Of a stretch of DNA of 64,000 bases, positions 218 through 33,114 are shown piece after piece. The notes under the pieces are model-generated. The model made no database searches. It saw nothing but the letters and a program-made list of their open reading frames with translations, and was not told the DNA's origin. Numbering within the stretch: position 1 is the stretch's first letter; the number at the start of each line of letters is the position of its first letter. The position numbers were made by a program, and so were the translations under genes. Where the stretch lies: assembly GCA_021805825.1 (NCBI GenBank), contig JAJZEC010000007.1:25864-89863 (forward strand), written 5' to 3'. The DNA comes from Pseudomonadota bacterium. GTDB lineage: Bacteria; Pseudomonadota; Gammaproteobacteria; Burkholderiales; Burkholderiaceae_C.

Positions 218-569
218 GAAACCTCCGCTACGTTATCGACCGTTCCAACCCATCCACCCGATCCACCCGTGGAAACCATTTTGGTGTAAAGGCCTTCATG
301 CGTGACCTCATGCGTGACCAGCAGAGCCTTCGGGGACTGGGAGGCATCAGACCAGAACGGTATCTGTAACGCAATGCGTCCTTTGGTCACTTATCGTGAC
401 ATTCGTGGGCAGCTGCGTTTGCGTTAACGCCGTTCTTCCGGGCGCCGCATCGGGCATGGCCCGCGAATGCGTCGATACCCGGGTGGCGCCATGGACCGAG
501 CCATTCGCCGGCACGAGCGCGCGCCGGCGCCGCGCGTGGCGCACAATGCCGGCATCGTCGCCCTCCCCC

Positions 570-1511
570 ATGCGCCCCATCGAACCCCGCCTGCTGCAGG
601 CCTTCGTCGCCGTCGCCCATGAGGGCCACGTGTCGCGTGCCGCGCAGCGGCTGCACCGCAGCCAGCCGGCACTGAGCCAGCAACTCAAGGAACTCGGCGA
701 GCGCCTCGGCGTGGAACTCTTCCAGCGCGGCGCCAGCGGCATGCTGCTCACGCGCGACGGCGCCGCCCTGCTCAGCCATGCCGAACGTGCCCTCGACAGC
801 CTGGCCGAGTTCGAGCAGGCTGCACAGCGCGTCAAGGGAGGCGGGGCGCGCGGTCCGCTGCGCATCGGCACCATCCTCGACCCCGAGTTCACCCGCCTGG
901 GCGCCTTCCTGCGCGAACTCGTCGCCCTCGCCCCCGAACTCGAACCCGAACTGCAGCACGGCGTCAGTGGCGAGGTGCTGGAGCGCCTGCAGGCGCGCAC
1001 CATCGACGTCGGCTATTACCTGGGCGACCCCAACCACGACAGTGCCGAGGCCGGTGCCGGCCCGCGGCGGCCCGGCGAGGCCTTCGCCGACGACATCCTC
1101 ACCCGCTTCAGCTACCGCGTCATCGCCCCGCCGGGATGGGGCCCGCAGGTCCAGGGGCGCGGCTGGAGCGAACTCGTGCGCCTGCCCTGGGTGGCCACGC
1201 CGCAGCGCTCGGTGCACTCGCGCCTGCTGCAGGCGCTGCTGCAGCCCATGGGGCTGCACCTCAACCGCGTAGCCCTGGTCGACCAGGAGGCCTCCATGCT
1301 GTCCCTGGTACGCTCCGGGGTCGGCCTCTCGCTGGCACGCGACGCGGTGGCCATGCGCGAGAGCCAGCGCGAGGGCCTGGTCATCGCCGAGCAGGTCGAC
1401 ATCGCCTGCGACCTGCGTTTCGTCTGCCTCGCGCAGCAGCGCCGACGCCCTGCCGTGCAGTGCGCCTGGCAGGCGCTGCGTCGCGCCTGGCGAAAGGCGG
1501 CGGACGACTGA
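570..1511 (+). CDS. LysR family transcriptional regulator
   Basis: HTH LLQAFVAVAHEGHVSRAAQRLHRSQPALSQQLKELGERLGVELFQR, then LRIG substrate-binding domain. Start at ATG 570 (or 546) rather than ORF-track 396. Confidence 0.93.
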   Translation: MRPIEPRLLQAFVAVAHEGHVSRAAQRLHRSQPALSQQLKELGERLGVELFQRGASGMLLTRDGAALLSHAERALDSLAEFEQAAQRVKGGGARGPLRIGTILDPEFTRLGAFLRELVALAPELEPELQHGVSGEVLERLQARTIDVGYYLGDPNHDSAEAGAGPRRPGEAFADDILTRFSYRVIAPPGWGPQVQGRGWSELVRLPWVATPQRSVHSRLLQALLQPMGLHLNRVALVDQEASMLSLVRSGVGLSLARDAVAMRESQREGLVIAEQVDIACDLRFVCLAQQRRRPAVQCAWQALRRAWRKAADD

Positions 1512-1783: not shown

Positions 1784-1817
1784 TGTCCTTTGTTGCCAGG
1801 AACGACAACACGATTTG

Positions 1818-4800
1818 ATGGACACCGCAACCCCGTCCCCCATCGCCATCGTCGGCCTGGCCATGCGCCTGCCCGGCGACCTGCAACAACCACACGACCT
1901 CTGGCAGGCCTTGCGCGAAGGCCGCGATCTCGTCGGCAGCATCGACCCCGCGCGCTGGGCCACGCGCGAACTGCAACATCCCTCGCGCGCGGAACCCGGG
2001 CGCAGCATCACCTTCTCCGCCGGGGTGCTTTCGGACATCGAATCCTTCGATGCCTCCTTCTTCGGCATCTCCCCGCGCGAGGCGCAACTGCTCGACCCGC
2101 AGCAGCGCCTGCTGCTCGAAATGGCCTGGGAGACCCTGGAGGATGCAGGCATTCCGCCCACGCAGGTCGCCGGAAGCGACTGCGCGGTGTACCTGGGCAT
2201 CTCCGGGCTCGACTACGGCATGCGCCTGTTCGGCGACATGGCGGTCATGGGCGCCCACACCATGACGGGCAACACCATGAGCGTGGCGGCCAACCGCCTG
2301 TCCTATGTGTTCGACCTGCACGGTCCGAGCCTGGCGGTGGACACGGCCTGCTCCTCCTCCCTCGTGGCCCTGCACCACGGCTGCGAGGCGCTGCGCCACG
2401 GCCAGGCGGGCATGGCGCTGGTGGGGGGCATCAACGTACTGCTGCACCCCTATCCTTTCGTCGGCTTCACCAAGGCGTCCATGCTCTCGGCCAACGGCCG
2501 CTGCCGGCCCTTCGCTGCCGGCGCCGACGGCTATGTACGCGCCGAAGGCGGCGGGCTGCTGCTGCTCAAGCCGCTGCAGCAGGCGCTGCGCGACGGAGAC
2601 CGCATCCACGGCGTCATCCGCGCCAGCGGGGTCAACACCGACGGCGCGCGCAAGAGCGGGCTGACCATTCCCAGCGGGCAGGCACAGGCCGAGCTCATGC
2701 AGCAGGTGCTGGGCGCGGCCGGGCTGCAGGCGCAGGACATCGACTACCTGGAAGCCCACGGCACCGGGACGCGCATCGGCGACCCCATCGAAGCCGGCGC
2801 CATCGGCCGCGTCTACGGCCAGCCGCGCGACGGTGCGCCGCTGCCCATCGGCTCCATCAAGAGCAACCTGGGCCACCTCGAGCCCGCCTCCGGCATGGCC
2901 GGCCTGTTCAAGGCGCTGCTCGTGCTGCAGCACGCCGAGGTGCCGCCCACGCGGGTGCAGGGCGAACTCAACCCCGACATCGACTTCGACACCCTCGGCC
3001 TGCAGGTGGTACGCGAAGCGGCACCGCTGGCGCCTGCGCAACGCCCGCTGCGTGCGGCGGTCAACTCCTTCGGTTTCGGCGGGGTCAACGCCCACGTCAT
3101 CCTGGAGCAGCCGCCGTCGGCGGCGCCGCGCGCGATGCCGGCGTTCGACGCCGCCGCCCCCGCCGCCGCCCCGCTGCTGCTCAGCGCGCAGGACGCAGGC
3201 GCGCTGCGCGCGCTGGCGCGCGCCTACCTGCCGCTGCTGGAGGATCCGGCGCGGCGCGCCGAGGTGGCGCAGGCGGCCTGGCGTCAGCGTGCATGGCTGG
3301 GCGAACGCCTGGCGCTGGCCGATGCCGGCGATGCGCAGGCGCTGCAGGCGCTGCGCGACTTTGCCGAGGGCGGTGAAGCCGACACTGCCCGACTCTGGCA
3401 GGAGCAGGCGCTGCCCGACCTCGAAGGCGGCCACGCCCGGGTAGCCTGGATCTACAGCGGCAACGGCGCGCAATGGGTGGGCATGGGGCGGCGCCTGCGC
3501 CAGCAGAGCGCGCTGTTCGACAGCACGCTGCGCGACACCGCAGCGCGCATCGCCGCGCATGGCGGCCCCGACGTGCTCGCAGCGCTCGACGACGACCAGG
3601 CGCAGGCGATGGACGACACGGCGGTGGCGCAACCCGCGCTGTTCGCCCTGCAGGTGGCCACCACCAGCGTGCTGCGCAGCCGCGGGCTGCGCGCCGACGC
3701 CGCCATGGGACACAGCGTGGGTGAAATCGCCGCCGCGTGGGCGATGGGCGTGCTCGACCTCGACTCCGCCTGCCGTGTCATCGTCGCGCGCAGCGCGGCG
3801 CAGGCCACCACGCGCGGCGCCGGACGCATGGCCGCCGTGGGCCTGGGTGCGCAGGCGCTGCAGCAGCGGCTGCAGGCACTCGGGCTGGAAGGGCAGGTGG
3901 CCATCGCCGCCGACAACAGCCCGCGCAACAGCACCGTCAGCGGTACGCCGCAGGCACTGCAGCAACTGCACGAAGGCCTGCGCGCCGACGCGACCGCATG
4001 GCGCGAACTGGGTCTGGACTACGCCTTCCACAGCCCCGCCATGGACCCCATCCGCGAGCCCCTGCTGCACAGCCTGCAGGGGCTGCAGCCCGCGCCTGGC
4101 CAGGGACGCGTGTTCTCCAGCGTCACCGGGGCCGAACTCGCCGGCAGCGCCTTCGATGCCGACTACTGGTGGCACAACATCCGCGACTGCGTGCAATTCG
4201 CCCCCGCGCTGCGCGCCATGCGCGAGGCCGGGGTGCGCCTGTTCGTGGAAATCGGCCCGCATGCCATCCTGCAGCGCTACCTCGCGGAAACCCTCGACGG
4301 CGTGCTGCCGCAGGCGCGCGCCCTGGCCTGTGCGCCGCGCCGCGACGACACCCTGGCGCGGCTGCACGAATGCGTGCTGCGCGCGGCCATGCTCGGCGCC
4401 GAGGTGGACGCCGCGGCCTGGTTCGCGCAAGACCTGCCCCGGCGCGTGGCCCTGCCCTCCTACCCCTGGCAGCGCCAGCGCCACTGGTACCCGCGCAGCA
4501 GCGAATCGCGCAGCGCGCTGGAGCGGCGCGCCGTGCACCCCCTGCTCGGCTGGCGCCTGGATGACCATCCAGCCGGCTGGGAGAACCACCTCGACCCGCG
4601 CACGCAGACCTGGCTGGCCGGGCACAAGGTGGGCGGCGCCATGGTGCTGCCCGCCGCCGCCTATGTCGAAATGGCCCTCGCCGCCTCGAAGGAACACTTC
4701 GGCAGCGAAAGCGCCGGCCATGTGCTCGAAGGCCTCGACATCGTCGCTCCGGTGGTGTTCGACGGCGAGCACGCGCGCACCCTGCGCCTGCTCTTCGACG

Positions 4801-7800
4801 CGCAGTCGCTGCGCTTTCGCATCGAGGGCCGGCCGCGCCTGAGCGAGGACGCCTGGACGCTGCACGCCCAGGGGCGCCTGCTCGGCGCCGTTCCCGGCGG
4901 AGAATCGCGCCAGCCGCTGCTCGCGCAGCAACCCGCGGCCACGCGCCTCGACGCGCAGCGCCACTACGCCCTGTGCGAAGCCCTCGGGCTGGACTACAGC
5001 GGCGCCTTCCGCGCCATCCAGGGCATCGAGGTGGCGGCGCGCTCGATCAGCGCCACCCTGCGCCCCGACGACGCGTGCGACCCCGCCTGGCTGCTCCCGC
5101 CGCCGGCCCTCGACCAGGGCTTCCAGTCCGTTCTCGGCTGGCTCGGCGCGCTGCGCCAGGGTCCGGCCGAGGACGATGCCATGGGCTACCTGCCGGTAGG
5201 CATCGGCCGCCTCGACTACTGGGCACTTCCTGCCGCCGACGACGCGCCGGCGCAGCCCGTGCGCAGCGTGCGCGTCAGCTTGGTGCGCAGCAGCCCGAGA
5301 TCGGTGCTGGTCGACCTTGAACTCCTCGACGCCGCCGGCACGGTGCTGGCCCGCCTGCGCGACTGCCGCTTCCGCGCCGCCGCGCTGGTGGCGCAGGCGC
5401 GTGCGGTATCCACCTGGGCGCTGCTGCCCCAGCTGCAACCGCTGCCGCCGTCGCCCGAGGCCGCGGCGCGCGGCGGCCTGCCCGAGGCCGCGGCCCTGCT
5501 GCAGCGCCTGCAGCAGCAAGCCGTCGACACCGAACAGGCCGCCGTGCACGCGCGCTACCTGGAGCAGGCGGCGCCGCTGCTCGAACTGCTGCCGCTGGCG
5601 TTCGGCCGCGACGCACTGCTCGCGCAGTTGCCGCCCGGCTCGACGGTCGAGGACAGCCGCGTGGCGCAATGGCGCCAGGCGCATCCCCTGCTGCAATGGC
5701 TGCTCGACCAGATGGAACAGCAAGGCCTGCTGCTGCAAGGCGCGCAGGGCTGGGAACTGCACGACGACCCGCAGCTGCCAGCCGCCGCCGACATCTGGAA
5801 TGCTGCCCTCGAATCCTGCCCGCAGGCCGCCCCCGAGCTGCTGCAGCTCGGGCTGGCCGGCAGCGCGCTGCCGGCGCTGCTCGCCGGCGCAGCCGATGCA
5901 CCGGCAGCCGACCTGAGCGCGCTGCTGCGCGCTCCCGCCTACCGCATGGCCGACGCGCAGGCACTGCGCGCGCTGCACGCTCTGCTCGGCGACTGGCCGC
6001 GTGGCCGCAGGCTGCGCGTTCTCGAGCTGTGCTCCACCGACGATAGCCTGTTCAGCCCTGCCAGCGCCTGGCTCGAAGGGCTCGCGCACCCCCGCCCGCA
6101 GGATGTCGACTGGGTACTGGGTTGCGCCGATGCCGACGCCCTGGCGCAGTTGCAGGCCGCGCATGCCGATGACGCGCGGCTGCGCGCGCTGCTGCTGGAT
6201 CCGAACGAATTCGAACTCCCCGATCTGGCCGATGAAGCGCCCTTCGACATCGTGCTCGTGCGCCAGGTGCTGCACCGCAGTTCCAAGCCGCAGCGCGCGC
6301 TGCGCGCGCTGGCCGCGCGCATGCACAGCGACGCCTGGCTGCTGCTCGCCGAACGCCGCCCGGATCATGCAGCCCACCTGGGCTTCGGACTGCGGCGCGA
6401 CTGGTGGCATGTGACCGATGGGCGCGCCGAAGGCGCGCTGCTGCCCGACGCCACGTGGTGCGACTGGCTGGCCGAACACGGCTGGCGCGACACCGCCATC
6501 CTGCCCGCGGCCTCGTCCGAGCCCGCGGCGCTGCTCGGCGGCTTCGTGCTGCTGGCGCGCGCTCCGCGGCAGGCACTGCTGCAGCAACAGGCGGCGACGC
6601 CGGTCGACTGGGTGCTGCACCTGCAGCACCCGGCCTGGCAGGCCACCGCCGAACGACTGGCCGAGCGCCTGCGCGCGGCCGGCCACGGCGTGCGGCTGGC
6701 GAGCGCGGACGACGGAGCGGGCGCCGGCTCGCCACAGCGTCATGTGCTGTTCGTCGGCAGCGCACCGCGGTCCGGCGCGCAGCCCACGCCGGCCGACGCC
6801 GCCGAAGTCGCTCGCCAGGCCGAGGCGCTGCGCGGCAGCCTGCTCGAGCTGGCCGCCTCCCCCGAGGGCCGTCGCGTGCACCTGGTGCTGCGTGGCGGCG
6901 CGCTGGTCGACGACGCGCAGGCCACCGCGGCCGACCCGGCTGCCGCGGCGCTTTGGGGCCTGGCGCGGGTCGCGATGAACGAATGCCACCCGCTGGCGCT
7001 GCAGCTCATCGACCTCGATGCCGCCAGCCCCGACGAAGGCGCCGAACGCCTGTTGCAGGAACTGCTGCACGGCGACGACGAGCAGGAAGTGCTGCTCGGC
7101 GCCGCGCACGGCGCCCCGTTGCGCCAGGTGCCACGGGTACGCCCGCTGCCGCTGGAGGCGCAGCAGCACGACGCGCAGGCCTGGCGGCTGGACTTCCGCC
7201 TGGCCGGGCAACTGCGCAACCTGCAGTGGCAGGCGGTGCCGCGGCGCGAGCCCGGCCCCGGCGAGGTGGAGATCCGCGCCATGGCCGCGGGGCTCAACTT
7301 CCGCGACGTCATGTACGCGATGGGGCTGCTCGCCGACGAAGCGGTGGAGCAGGGTTTCGCCGGCGCCAGCCTCGGTCTGGAGGTGGCCGGGCGGGTGCTG
7401 CGCTGCGGCCCCGGGGTCGAACACCTGCGGCCTGGCGACGAGGTGCTGGCCTTTGCCGGCGCCAGCTTCGCCAGCCACGTGGTGGTGCCGGCGCGCGCGG
7501 TGGCCCGCAAGCCCGAGCACTGGAGCTTTGCCGAGGCCGCCACCGTGCCCACGGTGTTCTTCACCGTCTGGTACGCCCTCAAGCACCTGGCCCGGCTGCA
7601 GCCTGGCGAGCGCGTGCTGGTGCATGGCGCGGCCGGCGGTGTCGGGCTGGCGGCCATCCAGGTCGCCAGGCTGCTGGGCGCCGAGGTCTACGCCAGCGCC
7701 GGCAATCCGGCCAAGCGGGCCTTCGTGCGCATGCTCGGGGTACAGCACGTGGTCGACTCGCGCAGCCTGGACTTCGACCGCGCGGTGCTGCGCGCCAGCG

Positions 7801-9428
7801 ACGGCCAAGGCGTCGACGTGGTGCTCAATTCGCTGGCCGGCGAGGCCATTGCGCGCAACCTGGCGTGCCTCAAGCCCTTCGGCCGATTCATCGAACTGGG
7901 CAAGCGCGACTTCTACGAGAACACCCCCGTCGGCCTGCGCCCCTTCCGCAACAACCTGAGCTATTTCGGCGTCGATGCCGACCAGCTCATGTCGCTGCGC
8001 CCGGAACTCGCCGCCGAGGTGTTCGCCGAAGCCATGCAGTGCTTCGCCGACGGCAAGCTCCACCCGCTGCCGCACCGCCTGTTCGAGCCCGACCAGGTGG
8101 TCGACGCCTTCCGCCACATGCAGCAGGCGCGCCAGATCGGCAAGGTCGTGGTCGAGCTCGAGCGCCGGCCGCGCCACATCCAGCCGGCGCAGCGCCCGCG
8201 GCTGCAACTGCGCGCCGACGCCAGCTACCTGGTCAGCGGCGGGCTGTCGGGCTTCGGGCTGGCCAGCGCGCGCTGGCTGGCCGATCGCGGCGCACGCCAC
8301 CTGGTGCTGCTCGGCCGGCGCGGCGAGCAGACCCCCGGGCTGCAACAGCCGCTGCAGGAACTGCGCGCGCGCGGCGTGCAGGTTCAGGTGCACGCTTGCG
8401 ACATCAGCGACCGCCAGGCACTGCGCCAGGTGTTCGAGCAGATGCGCGCCGGCATGCCCGAACTGCGCGGCGTGCTGCACGCGGCGATGGTGCTCGACGA
8501 CGCGCTGATGAGCGGCCTGGACGAGCAGCGTCTGCGCCGCGTGCTGCAACCCAAGCTCGACGGCGCGTGGAACCTGCACCAGGCCACCGCCGGGCTGCCG
8601 CTGGATCTGTTCGTGCTGTTCTCGTCGGCCACCACCATGCTGGGCAACCCGGGGCAGGCCAACTACGTGGCGGCCAACGCCTCGCTGGAGGCGCTGGCGC
8701 GGCTGCGCCGCCGTCAGGGGCTGGCCGGCTGCGCGGTGGCCTGGGGGCCGATCGCCGATGTCGGCGTGCTCACCACCAACGAGGTCGCGCGCGAGAACCT
8801 GCAGGCGCGCCTGGGCGCCGCGCCCATCGAGTCGGCCGCAGCGCTGGATCGCCTGGAAGCCCTGATGCTGCAGCAGGTCGCCGGCGCGGCGGTGATGAAC
8901 CTCGACTGGCCATCGCTGCAGCGCCTGCTGCCCGGCGCCGGGGCACGACGCTTCGACACCCTGCGCGGAGCCGGCGGCGATGCCCGGGAGGACGACGAGG
9001 ACGACCTGCGCCAGCGCCTGGCCGCGCTGTGTGCCGACGAAGCCCGCGCGCTGGTGCAGCAGATGCTGTGCCGCGAGGTCGCTGAGATCCTGCGCCTGCC
9101 TGCCGACAAGGTGGGGCCGGCGCAGTCGGTGTTCGACCTCGGCATGGACTCGCTGATGGCCGTCGAGCTCGGGCTCGCGCTGGAGCGTCGCTTCGGCATC
9201 CGCGTGCCGCCGATGATGCTCAACGAAAACCCCAGCATCGAGCGTATCGCCGAGCGCCTGCTCGCCCAGCTCGGGCCGCAGCCGGGCGAGGAGGCTGCCG
9301 ACAGCACCCGCGACATGGTGCGCAGCGTGCTGTCGCAGCACGCCGAGAACACCGCGCTGCAGCAGGTCGACGAGCTCGCCCAGCAGGTGCGCCAGGCCGC
9401 CGAGGGCGGCACCCAACTCATTGCCTGA
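1818..9428 (+). CDS. wcbR: Type I reducing polyketide synthase KS-AT-DH-(pseudo MT)-ER-KR-ACP, WcbR/RkpA-like
   Basis: KS DTACSSS, HGTGT, KSNLGH; AT GHSVG and YAFHS; DH HKVGGAMVLP and ALDQGFQ; ER VHGAAGGVG; KR SGGLSGFG, VLDD, NYVAAN; ACP LGMDSL; no TE. Followed by a PLP acyltransferase as in Burkholderia wcb and rhizobial rkp loci. Start set at ATG 1818. Confidence 0.9.
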   Translation: MDTATPSPIAIVGLAMRLPGDLQQPHDLWQALREGRDLVGSIDPARWATRELQHPSRAEPGRSITFSAGVLSDIESFDASFFGISPREAQLLDPQQRLLLEMAWETLEDAGIPPTQVAGSDCAVYLGISGLDYGMRLFGDMAVMGAHTMTGNTMSVAANRLSYVFDLHGPSLAVDTACSSSLVALHHGCEALRHGQAGMALVGGINVLLHPYPFVGFTKASMLSANGRCRPFAAGADGYVRAEGGGLLLLKPLQQALRDGDRIHGVIRASGVNTDGARKSGLTIPSGQAQAELMQQVLGAAGLQAQDIDYLEAHGTGTRIGDPIEAGAIGRVYGQPRDGAPLPIGSIKSNLGHLEPASGMAGLFKALLVLQHAEVPPTRVQGELNPDIDFDTLGLQVVREAAPLAPAQRPLRAAVNSFGFGGVNAHVILEQPPSAAPRAMPAFDAAAPAAAPLLLSAQDAGALRALARAYLPLLEDPARRAEVAQAAWRQRAWLGERLALADAGDAQALQALRDFAEGGEADTARLWQEQALPDLEGGHARVAWIYSGNGAQWVGMGRRLRQQSALFDSTLRDTAARIAAHGGPDVLAALDDDQAQAMDDTAVAQPALFALQVATTSVLRSRGLRADAAMGHSVGEIAAAWAMGVLDLDSACRVIVARSAAQATTRGAGRMAAVGLGAQALQQRLQALGLEGQVAIAADNSPRNSTVSGTPQALQQLHEGLRADATAWRELGLDYAFHSPAMDPIREPLLHSLQGLQPAPGQGRVFSSVTGAELAGSAFDADYWWHNIRDCVQFAPALRAMREAGVRLFVEIGPHAILQRYLAETLDGVLPQARALACAPRRDDTLARLHECVLRAAMLGAEVDAAAWFAQDLPRRVALPSYPWQRQRHWYPRSSESRSALERRAVHPLLGWRLDDHPAGWENHLDPRTQTWLAGHKVGGAMVLPAAAYVEMALAASKEHFGSESAGHVLEGLDIVAPVVFDGEHARTLRLLFDAQSLRFRIEGRPRLSEDAWTLHAQGRLLGAVPGGESRQPLLAQQPAATRLDAQRHYALCEALGLDYSGAFRAIQGIEVAARSISATLRPDDACDPAWLLPPPALDQGFQSVLGWLGALRQGPAEDDAMGYLPVGIGRLDYWALPAADDAPAQPVRSVRVSLVRSSPRSVLVDLELLDAAGTVLARLRDCRFRAAALVAQARAVSTWALLPQLQPLPPSPEAAARGGLPEAAALLQRLQQQAVDTEQAAVHARYLEQAAPLLELLPLAFGRDALLAQLPPGSTVEDSRVAQWRQAHPLLQWLLDQMEQQGLLLQGAQGWELHDDPQLPAAADIWNAALESCPQAAPELLQLGLAGSALPALLAGAADAPAADLSALLRAPAYRMADAQALRALHALLGDWPRGRRLRVLELCSTDDSLFSPASAWLEGLAHPRPQDVDWVLGCADADALAQLQAAHADDARLRALLLDPNEFELPDLADEAPFDIVLVRQVLHRSSKPQRALRALAARMHSDAWLLLAERRPDHAAHLGFGLRRDWWHVTDGRAEGALLPDATWCDWLAEHGWRDTAILPAASSEPAALLGGFVLLARAPRQALLQQQAATPVDWVLHLQHPAWQATAERLAERLRAAGHGVRLASADDGAGAGSPQRHVLFVGSAPRSGAQPTPADAAEVARQAEALRGSLLELAASPEGRRVHLVLRGGALVDDAQATAADPAAAALWGLARVAMNECHPLALQLIDLDAASPDEGAERLLQELLHGDDEQEVLLGAAHGAPLRQVPRVRPLPLEAQQHDAQAWRLDFRLAGQLRNLQWQAVPRREPGPGEVEIRAMAAGLNFRDVMYAMGLLADEAVEQGFAGASLGLEVAGRVLRCGPGVEHLRPGDEVLAFAGASFASHVVVPARAVARKPEHWSFAEAATVPTVFFTVWYALKHLARLQPGERVLVHGAAGGVGLAAIQVARLLGAEVYASAGNPAKRAFVRMLGVQHVVDSRSLDFDRAVLRASDGQGVDVVLNSLAGEAIARNLACLKPFGRFIELGKRDFYENTPVGLRPFRNNLSYFGVDADQLMSLRPELAAEVFAEAMQCFADGKLHPLPHRLFEPDQVVDAFRHMQQARQIGKVVVELERRPRHIQPAQRPRLQLRADASYLVSGGLSGFGLASARWLADRGARHLVLLGRRGEQTPGLQQPLQELRARGVQVQVHACDISDRQALRQVFEQMRAGMPELRGVLHAAMVLDDALMSGLDEQRLRRVLQPKLDGAWNLHQATAGLPLDLFVLFSSATTMLGNPGQANYVAANASLEALARLRRRQGLAGCAVAWGPIADVGVLTTNEVARENLQARLGAAPIESAAALDRLEALMLQQVAGAAVMNLDWPSLQRLLPGAGARRFDTLRGAGGDAREDDEDDLRQRLAALCADEARALVQQMLCREVAEILRLPADKVGPAQSVFDLGMDSLMAVELGLALERRFGIRVPPMMLNENPSIERIAERLLAQLGPQPGEEAADSTRDMVRSVLSQHAENTALQQVDELAQQVRQAAEGGTQLIA

Positions 9429-9447
9429 GCCCCCGGAGAACCACCCC

Positions 9448-10812
9448 ATGAGCTCCGCCGACGACAAGCAACCCAGCGCCAAGCCGGCGGCCCGGCCCAC
9501 GGGCCTGGCCGCGATGGCGCGCCAGCGACTGATCGAGCGCCTGCGCGGCCCGGCCGCCCCTGGCGGCGCCTCCGCGCGACTGCAGGAGGAACACGCCGAT
9601 CCCCATCCCAGGGTGCCGGAGTCGCTGTGCCGTTTCGACACCCACCCGGCCTACGAGAAGCTGCTGGTGTCGCAGACCGCCGCACAGCGCGTGGGGGTGG
9701 GCAACCCCTTCTTCAAGGTGCATGAATCGGCCGCCGGCGCCACCACCCGCATCGCCGGCCGCGAATACGTCAACTTCTCCAGCTACGACTACCTCGGGCT
9801 CAACGGCCACCCGCGCATCGAGGAAGCCGTGTTGCAGGCGGTGCGACGCTACGGCACCTCGGCGTCGGCCAGCCGTCTGGTGGCCGGCGAGCGCCCGATC
9901 CAGCGCGAGCTGGAAGCCGAGCTCGCCGCTTTCTACGGCGCGCAGGCCTGCGTGGCCTTCGTCAGCGGCCACGCCACCAACGTCAGCACCATCGGCAGCC
10001 TGTTCGGGCCGAAGGATCTGGTGCTGCACGACGCGCTGGCGCACAACAGCGTGCTCGAGGGCATCAAGCTGTCGGGGGCGCACCGGCGCGGCTTCGCGCA
10101 CAACGACTGGCAGCAGCTCGACGCGCTGCTGCACCAGATGCGGGGTGACTTCGAACGCGTGCTGGTGGTCGTCGAAGGCCTGTACAGCATGGACGGCGAC
10201 CTGCCGGAACTGCCCCGCTTCATCGAAGTCAAGCGCCGCCACAAGGCGCTGCTGATGGTCGACGAGGCGCATGGGCTGGGGGTGCTCGGAGCCACTGGGC
10301 GCGGCGTGGCCGAGCACTGGAGCATCGCCCCCGACGGGGTCGACATCTGGATGGGCACGCTCAGCAAGTCCCTTGCCGGCTGCGGGGGCTTCGTCGCCGG
10401 CAGCCGCCCGCTGGTCGAGCTGCTCAAGTACACGGCGCCGGGCTTCGTCTACAGCGTGGGGCTGTCGCCTGCGATGGCCGCCGCGTCACTGGAGGCGCTG
10501 CGCATGCTGCGCGAACAGCCCGAGCGCGTGCAGGCGCTGCAACGCAACGGTCAGCTGCTGCGCGACTACGCGCGCACGCGCGGCATCGACACCGGGCTGT
10601 CGATGGGCTACGCGATCACCCCCGCGATCCTCGGCTCCTCGCTGCGCGCGGTGAAGGCCTCCAACGCGCTCTTCGAGCGCGGCTTCAACGTACAACCCAT
10701 CGTGCACCCGGCGGTCGAGGAGCGCGCCGCGCGGCTGCGCTTCTTCGTGTCCGCCTCGCACACCGCGGCGCAGATCACCTCGGCGGTCGACGCACTGGCG
10801 CGGGCCCTGTAG
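9448..10812 (+). CDS. wcbT: PLP-dependent alpha-oxoamine synthase (AONS/SPT family), WcbT/RkpG-like
   Basis: NFSSYDYLGL, GTSASASRLVAG, HNS, EGLYSMDGD, DEAHG, GTLSK (PLP Lys). ATG 9448 with GGAGA upstream; alternative TTG 9421 overlaps the PKS stop. Confidence 0.85.
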   Translation: MSSADDKQPSAKPAARPTGLAAMARQRLIERLRGPAAPGGASARLQEEHADPHPRVPESLCRFDTHPAYEKLLVSQTAAQRVGVGNPFFKVHESAAGATTRIAGREYVNFSSYDYLGLNGHPRIEEAVLQAVRRYGTSASASRLVAGERPIQRELEAELAAFYGAQACVAFVSGHATNVSTIGSLFGPKDLVLHDALAHNSVLEGIKLSGAHRRGFAHNDWQQLDALLHQMRGDFERVLVVVEGLYSMDGDLPELPRFIEVKRRHKALLMVDEAHGLGVLGATGRGVAEHWSIAPDGVDIWMGTLSKSLAGCGGFVAGSRPLVELLKYTAPGFVYSVGLSPAMAAASLEALRMLREQPERVQALQRNGQLLRDYARTRGIDTGLSMGYAITPAILGSSLRAVKASNALFERGFNVQPIVHPAVEERAARLRFFVSASHTAAQITSAVDALARAL

Positions 10813-11183
10813 TGTCCCGCCCGCGTGGCCGCCTGCGCGCGTTCACCGACGCTGCCCGCGGCCTGCGCGTGCTGCTGGCCACCCAGCCGCACGCCCGATT
10901 CCATGCCGTGGCGAGCGCAGCGGCGCTGCTACTGGGCGCGGTGCTGCACCTGAGCGCGTGGCGCTGGGCCGCGGTGCTCGCGGCCATCGCGCTGGTCGTC
11001 GTCGCCGAGGCGCTCAACACCGCGGTGGAATTCGCCGTGGATCTGGCCAGCCCGCAGTGGCACGAACGCGCGCGCGACGCCAAGGACGTCGCAGCGGCCG
11101 CCGTGCTGCTGGCCAGCCTGGCCGCGCTGGCGCTGGGCCTGCTGGCCTTTGGCGAACCGCTGCTGCACCGCCTCGGCGGCTGA
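10812..11183 (+). CDS. dgkA: Diacylglycerol/undecaprenol kinase family (DgkA) membrane protein
   Basis: Three hydrophobic helices, AEALNTAVEFAVD and AKDVAAAAVL motifs; GTG start overlaps the upstream TAG. Confidence 0.88.
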   Translation: MSRPRGRLRAFTDAARGLRVLLATQPHARFHAVASAAALLLGAVLHLSAWRWAAVLAAIALVVVAEALNTAVEFAVDLASPQWHERARDAKDVAAAAVLLASLAALALGLLAFGEPLLHRLGG

Positions 11184-11370: not shown

Positions 11371-11709
11371 TCAATCCAGCAGGGCCACGAGACGCCCGAT
11401 AGCGTCGTCGATCACCTCTTGGGGTGCATGCTCGATCTTGCGCGCCTTGCGAGCGGCTAGGTCAAGCATGCGAATCTTGTTCACCAAGGCTACGCCCTGT
11501 GTCTTGCAGCCAGTGCCCGTCAGGGTCACAGCAAAGCCGGCGTAGCGTGCGAAGTCGCCGCCCTGGGTGATCGGCGCGATCAGCACATCGCCGAGCCAGT
11601 TGAACTCCTTGGTCGTCAGGACCAGAGCCGGCCGGGTGCCGCGCTGCTCAAGGCCGATGGCGGGGTCCAGGGGCACGCTCACGATGTCGCCTCGTTCGAA
11701 AACAGCCAT
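11371..11709 (-). CDS. chpB: Type II toxin, ChpB/MazF/PemK endoribonuclease family
   Basis: 112 aa: FERGDIVSVPLDPAIGLEQRGTRPALVLT...APITQGG...QGVALVNKIRMLD. Start overlaps the antitoxin-part stop (TGATG). Confidence 0.9.
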   Translation of the reverse strand: MAVFERGDIVSVPLDPAIGLEQRGTRPALVLTTKEFNWLGDVLIAPITQGGDFARYAGFAVTLTGTGCKTQGVALVNKIRMLDLAARKARKIEHAPQEVIDDAIGRLVALLD

Positions 11710-12446
11710 CAGATGACCTCGCCGCCCACGGGTCGCGCCACATCCCACAGCGCCAGGTCGGCCGGCGGCGCGGCCTTCAGGTCGCACTGCGCGATCATGT
11801 CGGCCAGGACGTACTTGCGCTTGGGCGTCAGCACGATCTTGCCGTCTGCCGTCGTGTCCAGCGTCAGGTGCTGGCCGGCGCCGATGCCAAGTTCTTTGAG
11901 AACCGGGGGCGGGATCACCACGGCGGTGCTGTTGCCCATCTTGATGGAATTGGCCACTCCGCCGACGCAGAAGGCGGTGAGCGGAAGCGCCAGCCACCAG
12001 CTGTGGAGCAGGGGGTCGATTCCGGCAATGTCCAGCCGCGTCAGCGCCACGCCGGTGATGGCGCAGGCGAGAAGGCCCGAGGCCATGGTGGCGAGCAGGC
12101 GGAACAACACCCCCACGCGCTTGGTGAGATCCTCGGCCAGGCCCGCGGCGAAGGCCGGCAGCCCGGCCACGCACAGCCGATTGAGCAGAACCGCTCCATG
12201 GCCCGCACCATGCGCCGACGCATAGACCACGCCCAGCAGCGCCACCGGCCCGGCCAGCAAAGCCACCCCGCCCACCCGCGCGGTGGGACGGGAATGGGCC
12301 TTCTGCACTCCCTCCAGGCCGTCCAGCGTGAGGCGGCCGTGCCAGCGCTGGGTGAGCGCAAGCAGCAGCGCCACACCGCCGGAGACCGCAAGCACCACCG
12401 CAAGCCCGAGCGCACCCTCGAGCAACTCCCGGGCAGCCATGCCCAT
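11709..12446 (-). pseudogene. In-frame chimera: 5' part of a WecA/MraY-like (glycosyl transferase family 4) gene joined to a ChpS/MazE-like antitoxin lacking its first residues
   Basis: Residues 1-168: multi-TM, QKAHSRPTARVGGVAL, AGLAEDLTK, GVANSI. Residues after the junction (about 11940): KMGNSTAVVIPPPVLKELG...KYVLADMIAQCDLK...WDVARPVGGEVI, AbrB/MazE-like. Confidence 0.8.
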
Positions 12447-12641: not shown

Positions 12642-13388
12642 TCAGCGCCCGGCCAGCCAGCCCACGGTTTCCTTGATCGCGTGGGCGCTGCGGCGCAAGG
12701 CGCCGGCATCGGGCAGCCATTCGCGGATTGCGCCTTCGTGCCGCGCCTCGAAATCGGTCGCGGCCGGAACGGCGTGCAGGCCATGCTTGCGCATTTGCGC
12801 CAGCGCGCGCCGCATGTGCAGCGCGGATGTGACGAGCAGCACGTTGTGGATGCCCCGCTTGGCAAGCAGTGCTGCGGAAAATTGCGCATTCTGGCGTGTA
12901 TTCAAGCTGCGGCGCTCGAGCAGCATGGCCTGCCGCGGAACCCCCAGGTCGAGCAGCAGGCTGCGCATCGCGCCGGCTTCCGTTCCCAGGTTCACCCCGG
13001 GGTCGCCATTGCCGCCGCTGAGCACCACCAGCGGCGCCTTGCCGGCGTGGTACAGGCGGGCGGCGTACCACACCCGCGCGGCGGCGCTGTTCAGGTGGGG
13101 CAGATGGCCCGCATGTTGCGGCGGCTCCACACCGCAGCCCAGCACCAGCATCGCCGGCTCCCGCGGCAGGCGCCGCAGCGGGATGTAGGGCACGCTGCGT
13201 TCCACCGCTCCCACCAGCAGGTTGCTGAAGACGGGGGTGGAGCACAGCCACAGCCAGGCCCAGCACAAGGCGGCCAGGATCCACGCCAGGCGGCGCGCAC
13301 GGCGCGCGAGCACCGCAGCCAGCAGCGCGCCGACGAGGGCGGTGCCCAGCGGGGAGATCAGGAAGATGACGAATGTGTCGAAGGCCAT
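12642..13388 (-). CDS. YdcF/ElyC family (DUF218) membrane protein
   Basis: N-terminal TM helices, LVLGCG, LSGG, TEAGAM, LERRSLNTRQNA, LVTSALHMRRA. Start at ATG 13388. Confidence 0.88.
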   Translation of the reverse strand: MAFDTFVIFLISPLGTALVGALLAAVLARRARRLAWILAALCWAWLWLCSTPVFSNLLVGAVERSVPYIPLRRLPREPAMLVLGCGVEPPQHAGHLPHLNSAAARVWYAARLYHAGKAPLVVLSGGNGDPGVNLGTEAGAMRSLLLDLGVPRQAMLLERRSLNTRQNAQFSAALLAKRGIHNVLLVTSALHMRRALAQMRKHGLHAVPAATDFEARHEGAIREWLPDAGALRRSAHAIKETVGWLAGR

Positions 13389-13434
13389 CGCTCGAGGGTG
13401 CGCGTCGGGGCTTGCCGGCGGCCCGCGTAGCTCC

Positions 13435-14640
13435 TCATCGCGGACGATCCGTGGCGCGCCAGCAATCCCGGCGCGCCTCGAAACGCTTGAGCACCAGGCA
13501 GAGCTCGCGCTCGGCTGCCGCGCGCTCGGCGGCGATCTCCCGCAAGCGCGCGTACCCCCGCTCGACCAGCGCGGAAACGCGCTGCGGATCGTCGAGGCTG
13601 GCCACCGCGAGCGCCAGATCCTCCGCGGCATCGGGGTCGACGAGCAGCGCGGCATCGCCCACCTGTTCGCCGATCCCCGCGCTGTAGATCAGGGGTTTGC
13701 CCGCGCTCCAGGCTTCCAGAGGAGGCAGATTGGTGGGCCCGAAGTACGTCGGCATGACGACCGCGCCACAGCCCTCGTACAAACCGCGCAGATCCGCCGA
13801 CTCGACGAAGCCGAGGAAGCGCACCTGCTCCTGCACGCCCAGCCTCACCGCGGTGGCACGCAGGTATTCCAGAACGCCGTAGTCCTTGCCGCACAGCACG
13901 AGCTGGGGTGTCTTGCCGCCGGCTTTCAGGAGGGCCAGGCACTGCAGGATGCGAATGTGGTTCTTGTGCGCCCAGAACTGCGCAGGATAGAACAGATAGC
14001 CCGGGCGCAGCTGGTGGCGTTGCAGCACCTCGGGGGTCGGCGCCGATGTGCTCTCGTTCAGGAAGGGAGAGGGCGCGAAGGGCATCGGCAACAGGCGCGC
14101 CGCATCGACTCCATAGCGCTCGCTGATGCGCCGCGCCAGTTGCGTGGAGTCGCAGAGCACGCAGATGGCCTGCGCCAGGGTGTTGCGGTACAGCTCCTCA
14201 CGCACAAGGAATTCATCGTTCGCCCGCACCTCGGGAAACTCGGGCTGGTCGCGGTGGCTCAGATCCCATACCGTTGCAACGTAGTTCAGGCGCCGCAACG
14301 CGAGGCAGCGGCGGCTCGGCGTGACAAAGTAGAGCAGATCCACACCCATGCCCTCGAGCGTGCGCTCCAGGGCGCTGGTCAGCCCGAGCCGCGCCTGCGC
14401 CTCGCGCAGCAGGCCGTTCATGCTCGCCGCGATCAGCCAGCGCTCCGTCCAGTCGCGCCGGATGTGCACTGCGCGCAGGCCGAGCGCCTCCAGGACGGGA
14501 AGGTTTTCCCGGAATCGCGTCGCGACGAGGAATTCGTAGCGCCCCGAGCACAGGCGCCGCATCTGGTCGATGGCGTTGATCGCCTGGTGGTAGCCGCCGC
14601 CGGCGCTGAGCCGGTTGTCGAGAACGGCAGCAATCCTCAC
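13435..14640 (-). CDS. Glycosyltransferase, GT-B fold (GT4-like)
   Basis: LFYPAQFWAHKNH, VRFLGFV, LPPLEAWSAGKP, VGDAALLVDP. GTG start overlaps the upstream stop (GTGA). Confidence 0.88.
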   Translation of the reverse strand: MRIAAVLDNRLSAGGGYHQAINAIDQMRRLCSGRYEFLVATRFRENLPVLEALGLRAVHIRRDWTERWLIAASMNGLLREAQARLGLTSALERTLEGMGVDLLYFVTPSRRCLALRRLNYVATVWDLSHRDQPEFPEVRANDEFLVREELYRNTLAQAICVLCDSTQLARRISERYGVDAARLLPMPFAPSPFLNESTSAPTPEVLQRHQLRPGYLFYPAQFWAHKNHIRILQCLALLKAGGKTPQLVLCGKDYGVLEYLRATAVRLGVQEQVRFLGFVESADLRGLYEGCGAVVMPTYFGPTNLPPLEAWSAGKPLIYSAGIGEQVGDAALLVDPDAAEDLALAVASLDDPQRVSALVERGYARLREIAAERAAAERELCLVLKRFEARRDCWRATDRPR

Positions 14641-15755
14641 CGCAGACACTCCCGGATCCTTGCCGCGACGCGCTCGATCTGCTGTTCGCTGAGCGCCATG
14701 CCGCTGGGCACGTACAAGCCGCGCAGCGCCAGGCGCTCGGCAACCGGGTAGCGCTCGGAACGGAACCATCCCCGCCCACGAAGAACCGGCTGCAGGTGCA
14801 TGGGGTAGAAAAACGGCCGGGTGCCGACCCCTGCAGCCTGCAGGCGCGCCATCATGGCCGAAGCGTCGAGGCCCGTGGATTCATCGAGCACGATTCCGTA
14901 GACCCAGTAGATGTTGTCGGCGAAGGCAGTTGCCGCCAGCGGGAGTTGCAGCCCGGGGACGTCGCGCAGCAGTTCGGTGTACAACTGCCCCATCCTGCGC
15001 TTGCGCGCCACGAACTCGTCGAGGCGCTCCAGCTGCGCCAGGCCCAGCGCTGCCTGCATGTTGGTCATGCGGTAGTTCCATCCCAGGCGCTCGTGCACGA
15101 AGCGGCGCTGCGGCTGGAAGCACAGGTTCCGCAGGCTGCGGAAGACCTCGGCGAGTTCGGCATCGTCGGTGACCAGCATGCCGCCTTCGCCGGTCGTGAT
15201 GTGCTTGTTGGCGTAGAAGCTGAAGACGCTGACGTCGCCGAAACTGCCGCACGGCGCCCCGCCGCAGGTCTGCCCGTGCATTTCCGCAGCGTCTTCGATG
15301 ACCCGCAGGCCATGCCGCCGCGCCAGATCCGTGATGCGCCGCATATCCACCGGCAAGCCGAAAATGTGCGGAACCAGCAGGGCCTTGGTGTTCGACGTGA
15401 TCCTCGACTCGATCGCCTCGAGGTCCATGTTCCAGGTCTCGGGATCGCTGTCGACCAGCACCGGGGTCGCACCGCTGCGGACGATCTGGGTGATGCACGA
15501 AATGATGGTGAAGGTCGGCAGGATGACTTCGTCGCCCGGGCCCACGCCGAGGGCGTCGACCGCGATGTCCAGCGCCGCGGTGCCGTTGGCCACGGCCACC
15601 GCGTGCCGACGCCCGACGCGCGCCGCGAAACGCTGCTCGAACTCGCGCACGAAAGGCCCGTCGGATGAGATCCAGCCGCTTTCGATGCATTGCAGCAGGT
15701 ATCGCTTCTCGCTGCCGTCGAGCAGCGGTTCATTGACCGGTATGAAATCGTTCAT
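14637..15755 (-). CDS. per: DegT/DnrJ/EryC1/StrS aminotransferase, GDP-perosamine synthase-like
   Basis: IPVNEP, GWISSDGPF, NGTAAL, IEDAAE, FSFYANKHITTGEGG, GWNYRMTN; gmd and manC are in the same run. Confidence 0.8.
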   Translation of the reverse strand: MNDFIPVNEPLLDGSEKRYLLQCIESGWISSDGPFVREFEQRFAARVGRRHAVAVANGTAALDIAVDALGVGPGDEVILPTFTIISCITQIVRSGATPVLVDSDPETWNMDLEAIESRITSNTKALLVPHIFGLPVDMRRITDLARRHGLRVIEDAAEMHGQTCGGAPCGSFGDVSVFSFYANKHITTGEGGMLVTDDAELAEVFRSLRNLCFQPQRRFVHERLGWNYRMTNMQAALGLAQLERLDEFVARKRRMGQLYTELLRDVPGLQLPLAATAFADNIYWVYGIVLDESTGLDASAMMARLQAAGVGTRPFFYPMHLQPVLRGRGWFRSERYPVAERLALRGLYVPSGMALSEQQIERVAARIRECLR

Positions 15756-16507
15756 CAGCGGTTGCTCAGTACGAAACACACGCCCCAGGTATCTTCGCCG
15801 GGAACCCGGCCGCTGAGGAATTCCTCGGCGGCCACGCGCCGGAAGCCGTGGGCCGCGGCCAGCCAATCGATCTCAGGCAGGGAAAAGTGACGCATCGGAT
15901 GCGTTTCCTCCAGAAGCTGCACGCTCCCGTGTCGGCGATCCCGCACGACCATGGTGTAGTGGACATCCACCCGGTTCTCGTTCGGCAGCATCGTGGGCTC
16001 CGCGATGCGCAGGATCTCTGTTTCCTCGTCGGCCATGCGTTTGACCCGCACCGACGGCCGCTGGGCCAGCACAGCCGGCGAGTACCAGGCATCGAACACA
16101 AAGACGCCGCCCGCCTCCAGATGGGCAGCGGCCGTCGCGAACACCGCGCCCAGATCCTCGTTGGACGTCTGGTAGCTCAGCACATGGAACAGCGACAGCA
16201 CGGCGTCGAAGCGGCAGCCCATGCGCACGCTTCGCGCATCCCCGAGCTGGCACGCGAAGCCGCCGCCGGTGGCCGCCGCCGCCATCATCCGGGGGCTGCG
16301 CTCGATTCCCTGCACGCGGTAGCCTCGCCCGGCAAGCAGGCGGCCGTGCCGCCCGGTGCCGCTGCCGAGCTCGAGCAGGCTCCCCTCCACGATGCCCTGG
16401 CGCTCCAGCACGCCGCAGACATACGCGGCCTCCGCTGCGGAGTCCTTGTCGCGGTACAACAGATCGTAGTAACGGCCGTAGGCGTCGAAGGGCAACTCGG
16501 GGCTCAT
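15755..16507 (-). CDS. Class I SAM-dependent methyltransferase
   Basis: YYDLLY, LLELGSGTGRH, GDARS, FDAVLSLFHV, GGVFVFD. Confidence 0.88.
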   Translation of the reverse strand: MSPELPFDAYGRYYDLLYRDKDSAAEAAYVCGVLERQGIVEGSLLELGSGTGRHGRLLAGRGYRVQGIERSPRMMAAAATGGGFACQLGDARSVRMGCRFDAVLSLFHVLSYQTSNEDLGAVFATAAAHLEAGGVFVFDAWYSPAVLAQRPSVRVKRMADEETEILRIAEPTMLPNENRVDVHYTMVVRDRRHGSVQLLEETHPMRHFSLPEIDWLAAAHGFRRVAAEEFLSGRVPGEDTWGVCFVLSNR

Positions 16508-16944
16508 TGCCCGCTCTCCCGGTGGCGAGCCCCGTCGGCGGCAATGCCCTCGAAGCGCTCCTTGTCCGCATCCCCTGCGTACGGACCCTGCTTGACCTCG
16601 ATAATCTCGGAGTCCTCGAGCATTTCGAAGCCGTGGCCTCCGCGAATCAGCAGGATCACGTCGCCGCTTCCGAGCACGCGGCTTTCCAGGTACTCCCGGT
16701 TCTCGTCGTAGAAATCGACCCGAACCCGTCCCCTGCGGATGAACAGCACCTCGTTGGTGTACGTCACCTCGCGCGGAACCGGCCGATGGACGTGCGGCGC
16801 GATGCAGTATCCGGCCGGACGGTTCATGTAGCCCAGCTGCTGCGAGTACGAACCCGGCGTCAGGAACACGATTCCGTTGGCACGATAATCCGCGCGCAGG
16901 ATCAGGGCCAGTTCCACTCCGTCCCGCGAAATGCTCTCGGTCAT
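16504..16944 (-). CDS. Small cupin-fold protein
   Basis: PHVH...EVLFIRRG...GDVILL..GGHGF...EVKQGPY two-His cupin pattern; 4-nt overlap with the methyltransferase. Confidence 0.7.
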   Translation of the reverse strand: MTESISRDGVELALILRADYRANGIVFLTPGSYSQQLGYMNRPAGYCIAPHVHRPVPREVTYTNEVLFIRRGRVRVDFYDENREYLESRVLGSGDVILLIRGGHGFEMLEDSEIIEVKQGPYAGDADKERFEGIAADGARHRESGQ

Positions 16945-16997
16945 GCTTCTCCCCCCAATTCCGTCACGCGATCGCCCGCCGGGCGCACCACCCTGCC

Positions 16998-17798
16998 TCA
17001 GGGTTCATAGCCCAGAACCTCGATCAGGTTTCCGGTCACCTCCCGGAACAACTGATAATGCTCGGCTTCGAATTCATCCCGATGCGATGACGACTTGAAT
17101 CTGTAGTGCGATTCCGTCTTGTCCTGTCGATGCGCCAGGTCGCGCTCGCGCATCCTGTCCTTGGTGTAGTCGCCGACGATCCCGGAAACCTCCGCCGCTG
17201 AATAATCGAGGCCGCAGTGGCGCAGGATGGATTCGATGCCTTCCAGCGGCCTGGAAGTGATGTCCTCGAATTTCAGGAACAGGATATCCGGGTCTTCGCG
17301 CCCGAGCTCCACCCACGAGCGCATCACCGAGAACTTGTCGTTGAACCGGATGAAATAGCTCAGCGCCTCCCTCTTCGGCACCCCCGCGAACCGCCGCCGG
17401 AGATCCAGCACGACCGGATTCTCCGCGTGCGTCTTCATCGTAGAATGATAGTCCGAAACAACCAGGTCGCGGGGATCCCGATAGATATAAACGGCCTTGT
17501 GTGCCTCGGGTTTTTCGATGAAATACCTGTAGGTCTGGTAGGAAACGTAGAGCCCCGGCACGAATACGCCCCGCGGAAAGCGCGCGACGTGTTCACCATA
17601 TTCGTAGTTGCGCTGCGGCATGCGTACAAGCCGCGTGATGCGCGCCATCCGTCGATCGCTGAATATCGCGGAAATCCACTGGCTTCCGCTCTTCTGGACG
17701 GTCGGAAAATACAGATTATCGAGCGTCCGGCCTCCGCGCAGAGCAAAGGCACGCGCTGTGGTCTTCATGTCGCGCAAAAATGTCTTCATGTCCTTCAC
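16998..17798 (-). CDS. PAPS-dependent sulfotransferase domain protein
   Basis: 5'-PSB-like TVQKSGSQW, 3'-PB-like YRDPRDLVVSDY, LKFED. GTG start; alternative ATG 17789. Confidence 0.85.
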   Translation of the reverse strand: MKDMKTFLRDMKTTARAFALRGGRTLDNLYFPTVQKSGSQWISAIFSDRRMARITRLVRMPQRNYEYGEHVARFPRGVFVPGLYVSYQTYRYFIEKPEAHKAVYIYRDPRDLVVSDYHSTMKTHAENPVVLDLRRRFAGVPKREALSYFIRFNDKFSVMRSWVELGREDPDILFLKFEDITSRPLEGIESILRHCGLDYSAAEVSGIVGDYTKDRMRERDLAHRQDKTESHYRFKSSSHRDEFEAEHYQLFREVTGNLIEVLGYEP

Positions 17799-17804
17799 TC
17801 TTGT

Positions 17805-19115: not shown

Positions 19116-19185
19116 GGAGTCGGGCGTCTCGAAGCTGCCGGGATCGCTCTGCGGGCTTCCTGCGCTCAGGTGGCGCGATGCGGGC

Positions 19186-21268: not shown

Positions 21269-21302
21269 CTCTCGTAGGTGCTTGCAGATCCGTGCATGAC
21301 CG

Positions 21303-33106: not shown

Positions 33107-33114
33107 GAGCCGCG

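Follow-up and report, generated by a model that had tools for sequence, protein, structure and literature searches.

A conserved PKS-AOS capsule-lipid gene pair and an adjoining DgkA-family kinase gene of probably different origin in a Burkholderiales genome

The wcb and rkp clusters combine a polyketide synthase (PKS) with capsule biosynthesis and export genes; WcbR and RkpA have been treated as one PKS group within such capsule clusters, and a protein of Nitrosomonas europaea has been named as a PKS of the WcbR/RkpA type (PMC3908369). The rhizobial rkp-1 region is required for K-antigen export and is proposed to make and modify a specific lipid carrier (PMC4881576, citing Kiss et al. 1997 and Muller et al. 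2009). Here, we analyze a stretch of 64,000 nucleotides, referred to as the window, from a metagenome-assembled genome (MAG) in 110 contigs of a bacterium of the Burkholderiaceae_C (contig JAJZEC010000007.1 of assembly GCA_021805825.1; C29:25864-89863 of G000 in our numbering). In the window, genes for a PKS, an alpha-oxoamine synthase (AOS), and a DgkA-family lipid kinase (DgkA2) lie head to tail on the plus strand. Sequence comparisons indicate that dgkA2 was most likely captured from a carrier-lipid recycling cassette and is not a conserved third step of a pathway. Overall, we consider it probable that two units of different origin have been joined in one transcription unit and that dgkA2 is no pathway partner of the other two genes.

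Judged by gene content, the PKS-AOS pair is the WcbR/WcbT (RkpA/RkpG) capsule module, a pair conserved across Proteobacteria. We assign it to this module because its usual neighbors are genes for KpsM, KpsT, KpsE, KpsD, KpsC, and KpsS, a sulfatase-like protein, a short-chain dehydrogenase/reductase (SDR), or ManC. A pattern scan covering a single genome of each species gave more than 597 AOS matches, and the best 80 of these were taken with 10-kb flanks; these 80 include N. europaea and no rhizobial locus. AOS orthologues with 53-85% identity are present in at least 80 genomes, and a PKS orthologue is found in 79 of 87 compared AOS loci, mostly directly upstream of the AOS gene. When the genes of all AOS loci were clustered, 67 loci were informative, i.e., contained four or more further genes. 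Of these, 61 include the PKS, while the other neighbors vary: Kps-type genes (35 loci), sulfatase-like genes (25), SDR genes (17), and manC (7). By Pfam, the variable neighbors comprise an ABC-2 permease (KpsM), an ABC ATPase (KpsT), a KpsE-like protein, a Poly_export/SLBB protein (KpsD), Capsule_synth proteins (KpsS, KpsC), a membrane protein of the sulfatase family, and an SDR. We also compared 25 genomes of the genus, in which G000 is the present genome and G023 its closest relative. In three of these (G003, G006, and G012), manC directly follows PKS-AOS, and in G006 and G012 the locus extends past manC with a KpsE-like gene and an ABC-2 permease gene. The nearest metagenome relatives of the AOS (79% and 78% identity) have the full order PKS-AOS-ManC-KpsE-like-ABC2. 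The pair in the window is a further instance of an already known, widespread capsule-lipid module.

As in the Burkholderia pseudomallei-type wcb system (WcbR/WcbT), a single-module PKS lacking a thioesterase (TE) domain is followed by an AOS of the BioF/serine palmitoyltransferase (SPT) family; the AOS proteins of Burkholderia loci are 55-58% identical to that of the window, and both are associated with GDP-sugar capsule genes. However, the wcb-type loci of Burkholderia have a gene between PKS and AOS, the order being sulfatase-like gene, PKS, another gene, and AOS, whereas the window has none. Moreover, no SDR, sulfatase-like, or Kps export gene adjoins the pair in the window, and a DgkA-family gene is found instead. 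RkpA/RkpG of the Sinorhizobium rkp-1 region have the same PKS-like and AOS-like enzymology as the window pair. The rkp-1 region also has RkpH (an SDR), RkpI, and RkpJ (KpsS-like) beside rkpG.

The PKS is of the iterative, fully reducing type I. Its open reading frame (ORF) is open over 1680-9428 with a likely ATG at 1818, and its domain order is ketosynthase-acyltransferase (AT)-dehydratase-(pseudo-methyltransferase)-enoylreductase (ER)-ketoreductase-acyl carrier protein (ACP), with a C-terminal tail of ~70 residues beyond the ACP. The Pfam matches are ketoacyl-synt, Acyl_transf_1, PKS_DH_N/PS-DH, ADH_N/ADH_zinc_N (ER), KR, and PP-binding; the methyltransferase domain is a weak remnant, and Pfam detected no TE domain in the protein. 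All catalytic motifs are intact (DTACSSS, HGTGT, NLGH, GHSVG, YAFH, HKVGGAMVLP, GGVG, and GMDSL). The AT specificity motif at about residue 735 is YAFH, which is intermediate between the signatures for malonyl (HAFH) and for methylmalonyl (YASH). The single-module, TE-less architecture is that of the WcbR/RkpA-type capsule PKS, and the motifs DPQQR and HGTGT given for this type are both intact (PMC3908369).

The AOS gene is open from 9421 to 10812, and we place its start at the probable ATG at 9448 because the database copy (P0001) has 454 residues. The protein matches Aminotran_1_2 of Pfam (3e-44) and contains a fold-type I pyridoxal phosphate (PLP) domain. The top NCBIfam models are bioF (354 bits), a Kbl-related model, and SPT, all of them below the curated cut-offs; the SPT models reach 196-300 bits against cut-offs of 500-670, which does not identify the protein as a true sphingolipid SPT. 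In an alignment of 16 family members, H184, D281, H284, S315, and K316 are invariant, K316 being the catalytic lysine of an SK motif, and the window AOS retains all residues that are invariant in this alignment. With SPT, BioF, and Kbl it shares the PLP domain and the conserved His, Asp, His, and Lys residues; it differs from them by the scores below cut-off and by an N-terminal extension of ~95 residues that is conserved in its own family. Also, its acyl donor is presumably the ACP of the PKS and not acyl-CoA or a free ACP.

From these properties we infer that condensation of an acyl-ACP with an amino acid is the natural chemistry of the PKS-AOS pair. In repeated rounds, the PKS would extend a chain on its own ACP to a long saturated acyl group; the AOS would then condense this group with an amino acid under decarboxylation, releasing a 2-amino-3-keto lipid. 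A literature search on wcbR/wcbT function and on a PKS-derived capsule lipid anchor gave nothing mechanistic, and no lipid product was named.

The three genes are tightly spaced. Given the AOS start at 9448, the gap between PKS and AOS is 19 nt, and the AOS stop codon TAG and the kinase start codon GTG overlap by 1 nt. A 5924-nt contig of an independent run spans 8500-11278 with zero mismatches, and because this contig covers the junction between AOS and dgkA2, the junction is real and not an assembly artefact. No terminator-like site is predicted between AOS and dgkA2, and terminator predictions in the window are no more frequent than expected by chance. A scan for sigma-70 promoters in the window DNA, which has a high GC content (65-75% across the first 20 kb), gave no match. 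RNA runs were sought for co-transcription of the three genes; only DNA metagenome runs matched the sequence, i.e., mine-drainage and also wastewater metagenomes. In its present position, dgkA2 is, as far as gene arrangement goes, probably co-transcribed with PKS and AOS.

DgkA2 has 123 residues and belongs to the DgkA family (DAGK_prokar, PF01219; 1e-28, 99.4 bits against a gathering cut-off of 22.3), with no matching NCBIfam model. The genome contains two DgkA genes. The other is a housekeeping copy of Escherichia coli type on contig C110 (segment SESALRQE); most genomes of the genus have an orthologue of it, and it is 35-39% identical to DgkA2. By comparison with G023, dgkA2 has a dN/dS of 0.34 and the AOS gene one of 0.26; based on these values, both genes are maintained, with purifying selection acting on dgkA2.

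An earlier note on this DNA had described a TE-less, fully reducing PKS, an AOS, and a DgkA-family kinase in tight spacing, all of which is borne out by the ORFs, Pfam matches, motifs, and the 1-nt overlap. It had also proposed a route from PKS through AOS to kinase. The first part of this route agrees with our results in that PKS-AOS is a conserved pair of capsule loci, with its chemistry deduced as above; the kinase step is not supported. Whether dgkA is kept next to wcbT in relatives had been set beforehand as the check, and a tblastn search (1e-5) for DgkA-family ORFs within 10 kb of the AOS found them in 0 of the 80 relatives. A hidden Markov model built from 22 DgkA sequences likewise found none in the 80 AOS loci at E values up to 1. 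In the reverse direction, 88 loci of DgkA2 relatives were examined, and none of these loci contains an AOS gene. Nor do the genes co-occur as a rule within the genus: among the 25 genomes, AOS is present in 13, DgkA2 in four, and both in two, i.e., G000 and G023, in which the genes are adjacent. G018 and G022 have DgkA2 without any AOS, beside a molybdoenzyme in G018 and beside an IS605-type transposase (OrfB/TnpB, L116:10386-11675) in G022. The DgkA2 clade is rare, with DgkA2-like genes in three of 400 other sampled genomes of the order.

The closest DgkA2 orthologues in a protein collection were followed to the contigs that carry them, and there the kinase keeps different company. The orthologue with 83% identity adjoins a PAP2 phosphatase gene, followed by Wza-like, large no-Pfam, and CpsB-like genes, with a transposase fragment upstream. 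The orthologues with 75% and 70% identity lie in PAP2-DgkA2-DUF218 operons of overlapping genes that are divergent from an initiating transferase of the WbaP type (Bac_transf) and of the WecA type (Glycos_transf_4), respectively. A same-strand adjacent PAP2 gene becomes more frequent with rising similarity to DgkA2: among the loci with enough upstream sequence, it is present in 3 of 55 at <50% identity, 7 of 12 at 50-65%, and 5 of 5 at ≥65%. In a maximum-likelihood tree, both AOS-linked kinases nest in a clade (support 100/99) whose other traced members are PAP2-linked. Within this tree, the G000 kinase groups with a sequence from a PAP2/Wza context and not with that of G023, with moderate support (89/71). 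A 79% AOS relative, with manC next to it, and an 83% DgkA2 relative, with PAP2 next to it, come from the same sample and lie on different contigs. Finally, an rve transposase fragment lies beside a DgkA2 relative at L127:803-1129; together with the transposase gene in G022, this is consistent with horizontal movement of the kinase. These orthologue contexts, beside PAP2 or DUF218 and initiating transferases that depend on undecaprenyl phosphate (Und-P), join the distribution data in speaking against the kinase step.

The cassette suggests what DgkA2 might do. E. coli PAP2 enzymes include phosphatases of undecaprenyl diphosphate (C55-PP) (PMC7559476), and DUF218 proteins were recently described as Upr-like release factors that hydrolyze C55-PP-linked polysaccharide precursors and free C55-PP for recycling (bioRxiv 10.64898/2026.10.14.759067). 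In Gram-positive bacteria, DgkA is an undecaprenol kinase and thereby supplies the pool of Und-P (C55-P) (PMC5723303). The three activities of Gram-positive DgkA, BcrC/PgpB (PAP2), and Upr-like DUF218 are mirrored by the neighborhood of the DgkA2 clade (PAP2, DUF218, and WecA/WbaP); G000 differs from a full set for Und-P regeneration in having no PAP2 of the cassette type. By analogy, PAP2-DgkA-DUF218 beside WecA/WbaP would therefore be a coherent carrier-lipid regeneration unit, and from the functions of PAP2, DUF218, and Gram-positive DgkA the coherent role for DgkA2 would be conversion of undecaprenol to undecaprenyl phosphate. A role like that of undecaprenol kinase is the best-supported guess, and we give this substrate slightly better than even chances. 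In the window, DgkA2 would thereby recycle the carrier lipid for the neighboring Und-P-dependent glycan cluster.

DgkA2 is a predicted three-helix membrane kinase like E. coli DgkA. An alternative is that it is a true diacylglycerol (DAG) kinase. On that account, it would detoxify DAG released by a phospholipid-consuming phosphoethanolamine/phosphoglycerol transferase of the sulfatase family, in the manner of eptA-dgkA and mcr-3-dgkA. Genes for both DgkA and PAP2 are indeed known to be associated with mcr and eptA (PMC7559476), and sulfatase-like membrane proteins accompany PKS-AOS in the 25 of 67 relatives mentioned above. DgkA2 also shares the catalytic core (E, N, E, D, KD) with the E. coli enzyme, keeping the equivalents of E69, N72, E76, D80, and K94-D95. 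The similarity between the two proteins is weak (phmmer E ~4e-8, aligned over residues 14-107), and the NEAAFRQE segment of the E. coli protein differs in DgkA2, which has Gln at the position of the metal ligand Glu28 and His at that of Glu34 (QPxARxH; QP(N/H)AR(I/F)H in the clade) and so does not classify as E. coli type. Against a role as DAG kinase, G000 has no homologue of the sulfatase-like proteins of capsule loci, no sulfatase-like gene lies next to DgkA2 in related contigs, and an E. coli-type DgkA is already encoded in the genome. A phosphatidate PAP2 paired with a DAG kinase would also run a futile cycle, whereas a C55-PP phosphatase and an undecaprenol kinase converge on one product. 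We therefore regard a role as DAG kinase as unlikely.

The recruitment of the kinase can be pictured as follows. We suggest that an Und-P-dependent glycan cluster brought dgkA2 in and that later rearrangements, in the common ancestor of G000 and G023, moved the gene to its place behind the AOS gene. At this site, a toxin-antitoxin (TA) insertion and a broken WecA gene can still be seen. The DUF218 gene and the broken WecA-like gene lie 0.5-1.5 kb downstream of dgkA2. The DUF218 protein of the window is 70% identical over ~252 residues to the DUF218 proteins of the L130 and L131 cassettes, the same divergence as for the kinase. The remnant of the glycosyltransferase family 4 (GT4) gene covers profile positions 5-81 of 160, i.e., the N-terminal half, and is 46% identical to residues 114-251 of the 449-residue GT4 beside the L131 cassette. 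The MazE-GT4 ORF and mazF share an ATGA overlap. It seems that the TA insertion destroyed the initiating transferase of the adjacent glycan cluster. Contigs of four independent metagenome runs all break at 11238-11283, 11941-11942, and 12330-12359; a 1643-nt contig joins from elsewhere at 11238-11278, and the MazEF stretch has seven to eight variant positions. The breaks and variants suggest that strains vary in structure immediately downstream of dgkA2 or that a TA element is repeated there. Altogether, the spot is marked as unstable by the MazEF pair, by the fusion of MazE with GT4, and by breaks in the assembly graph, which lie at 11254-11278, 11942, and 12330-12359.

Four observations weigh against a kinase that is only a captured recycling enzyme. 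First, the 1-nt overlap, the 13-nt gap on the same strand between AOS and dgkA2 in G023, and the lack of a predicted terminator mean that the kinase is now probably expressed with PKS-AOS, and a tight same-strand junction in two species-level genomes makes a new, lineage-specific functional link possible. Second, the PAP2 gene of the cassette is gone from G000 and the WecA-like gene is broken, leaving the recycling cassette incomplete; no cassette-type PAP2 was found in G000, G018, G022, or G023. Third, the link to DUF218 is confined to the closest relatives, i.e., two contig contexts and the window. Fourth, Gln replaces Glu28 in at least 90% of the aligned members of the DgkA2 clade.

The tight same-strand junction without a predicted terminator would also speak for a three-gene pathway, in which DgkA2 phosphorylates the long-chain base made by PKS and AOS, yielding a glycan primer or anchor that is not an isoprenoid. 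Purifying selection on the kinase in both genomes fits such a pathway, and loss of the cassette PAP2 may have freed the kinase for another role. However, none of the 80 other AOS loci contains the kinase, and 11 of the 13 AOS-bearing genomes of the genus lack it; it also occurs without PKS-AOS in G018 and G022, and its orthologues are PAP2-linked. In addition, no ketoreductase or SDR gene was found here that could make the hydroxyl group needed by a kinase. A three-gene pathway is conceivable only as a recent, lineage-specific co-option, and even so we consider it very unlikely. The lost PAP2, the broken WecA-like gene, the tight shared junction, and the maintenance of both genes make a co-option onto the PKS-AOS product possible in this lineage; the specific version, in which the co-opted kinase of G000 and G023 would yield a phospho-sphingoid-like primer that replaces the usual lipid acceptor of the Kps type, we hold to be highly improbable.

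There remains the state of the PKS-AOS pair itself. A Kps-type ABC-transporter capsule locus, present around PKS-AOS in 35 of 67 relatives, is not in the window, where the neighbors of the pair are dgkA2, the TA pair, and a flippase-type glycan cluster. The pair could be an orphaned remnant that lost its Kps export and initiation genes in the rearrangement and makes nothing useful, which would render its juxtaposition with dgkA2 meaningless. In line with this, the assembly contains no homologue of KpsM, KpsE, KpsD, or KpsS and a single Capsule_synth (KpsS/C-like) gene, and the TA insertion and the broken GT4 gene lie next door. However, the MAG is fragmented, and the accessory genes may simply be unassembled. 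The Capsule_synth gene lies on contig C101 (5003 bp) together with a GT1 gene and an epimerase gene; the GT1 is 50% identical to the GT1 of the PKS-AOS locus of G015, and the epimerase is 59% identical to that at 20273-21268 of the window. C101 may come from a Kps-type capsule locus and have remained unplaced. One unrelated Wza-type gene is on contig C52. The 9 kb of coding sequence are intact with all catalytic motifs of PKS and AOS, which argues against decay, as does the dN/dS of 0.26 for the AOS gene, whose product is 83-85% identical between G000 and G023. An orphaned remnant is thus quite unlikely.

The PKS-AOS pair occurs in hundreds of proteobacterial genomes, including those of pathogens and symbionts, and a clue to the step downstream of it would be useful. 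None comes from the window, since the kinase became a neighbor only recently and has unrelated conserved partners of its own. What deserves most attention is the recurrent PAP2-DgkA(-DUF218) cassette next to initiating transferases that depend on Und-P; with the Upr-like function of DUF218, it resembles a complete set for regenerating Und-P attached to glycan clusters. The cassette agrees with the part in carrier-lipid recycling recently proposed for DUF218 (Upr-like) proteins and predicts undecaprenol kinase activity for a clade of Gram-negative DgkA proteins.

The features of the locus and of the related cassettes are listed in Table 1. Polysaccharide genes do adjoin the three genes: a GDP-mannose-based glycan cluster occupies 12642-22955 on the minus strand. 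It encodes a GT1, a DegT aminotransferase, a methyltransferase, a Wzx-like flippase, Gmd, an epimerase/reductase, and ManC, the last being 68% identical to the ManC that is encoded directly after the AOS in genus relatives.

Table 1. Positions of the features in the window and of the related cassettes on metagenome contigs
Feature	Position	Strand	Basis
LysR-family regulator (upstream of PKS; context gene)	396..1511	+	Pfam HTH_1 and LysR_substrate
PKS, iterative fully reducing type I, WcbR/RkpA type	1818..9428	+	Pfam and NCBIfam domains
AOS, BioF/SPT/Kbl family, WcbT/RkpG type	9448..10812	+	Pfam, NCBIfam, orthologues
DgkA2, second DgkA-family lipid kinase of the genome	10812..11183	+	DAGK_prokar, orthologue contexts, tree
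MazF/PemK toxin	11371..11709	-	PemK_toxin match at the C-terminal end of a long minus-strand ORF
Truncated WecA/MraY-like GT4 fused in frame to MazE antitoxin	11709..12446	-	Glycos_transf_4 and MazE_antitoxin in one ORF
DUF218 (Upr-like) protein	12642..13655	-	Pfam DUF218; orthologue of the cassette DUF218
GDP-mannose-based glycan cluster with flippase	13435..22955	-	Pfam
PAP2-DgkA-DUF218 cassette	L130:5471-7127; L131:3866-7130		Metagenome contigs

Further along, over 22543-24666 and 30901-40848, the window contains an acyl-CoA synthetase gene divergent from manC, a second set of DegT, hexapeptide-transferase, KAS III, and flippase genes, and CysQ-CysD-CysNC for the synthesis of 3'-phosphoadenosine 5'-phosphosulfate (PAPS). 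Taken together, the envelope and lipid genes suggest a large island for surface glycans whose sugars are acylated and possibly also sulfated.

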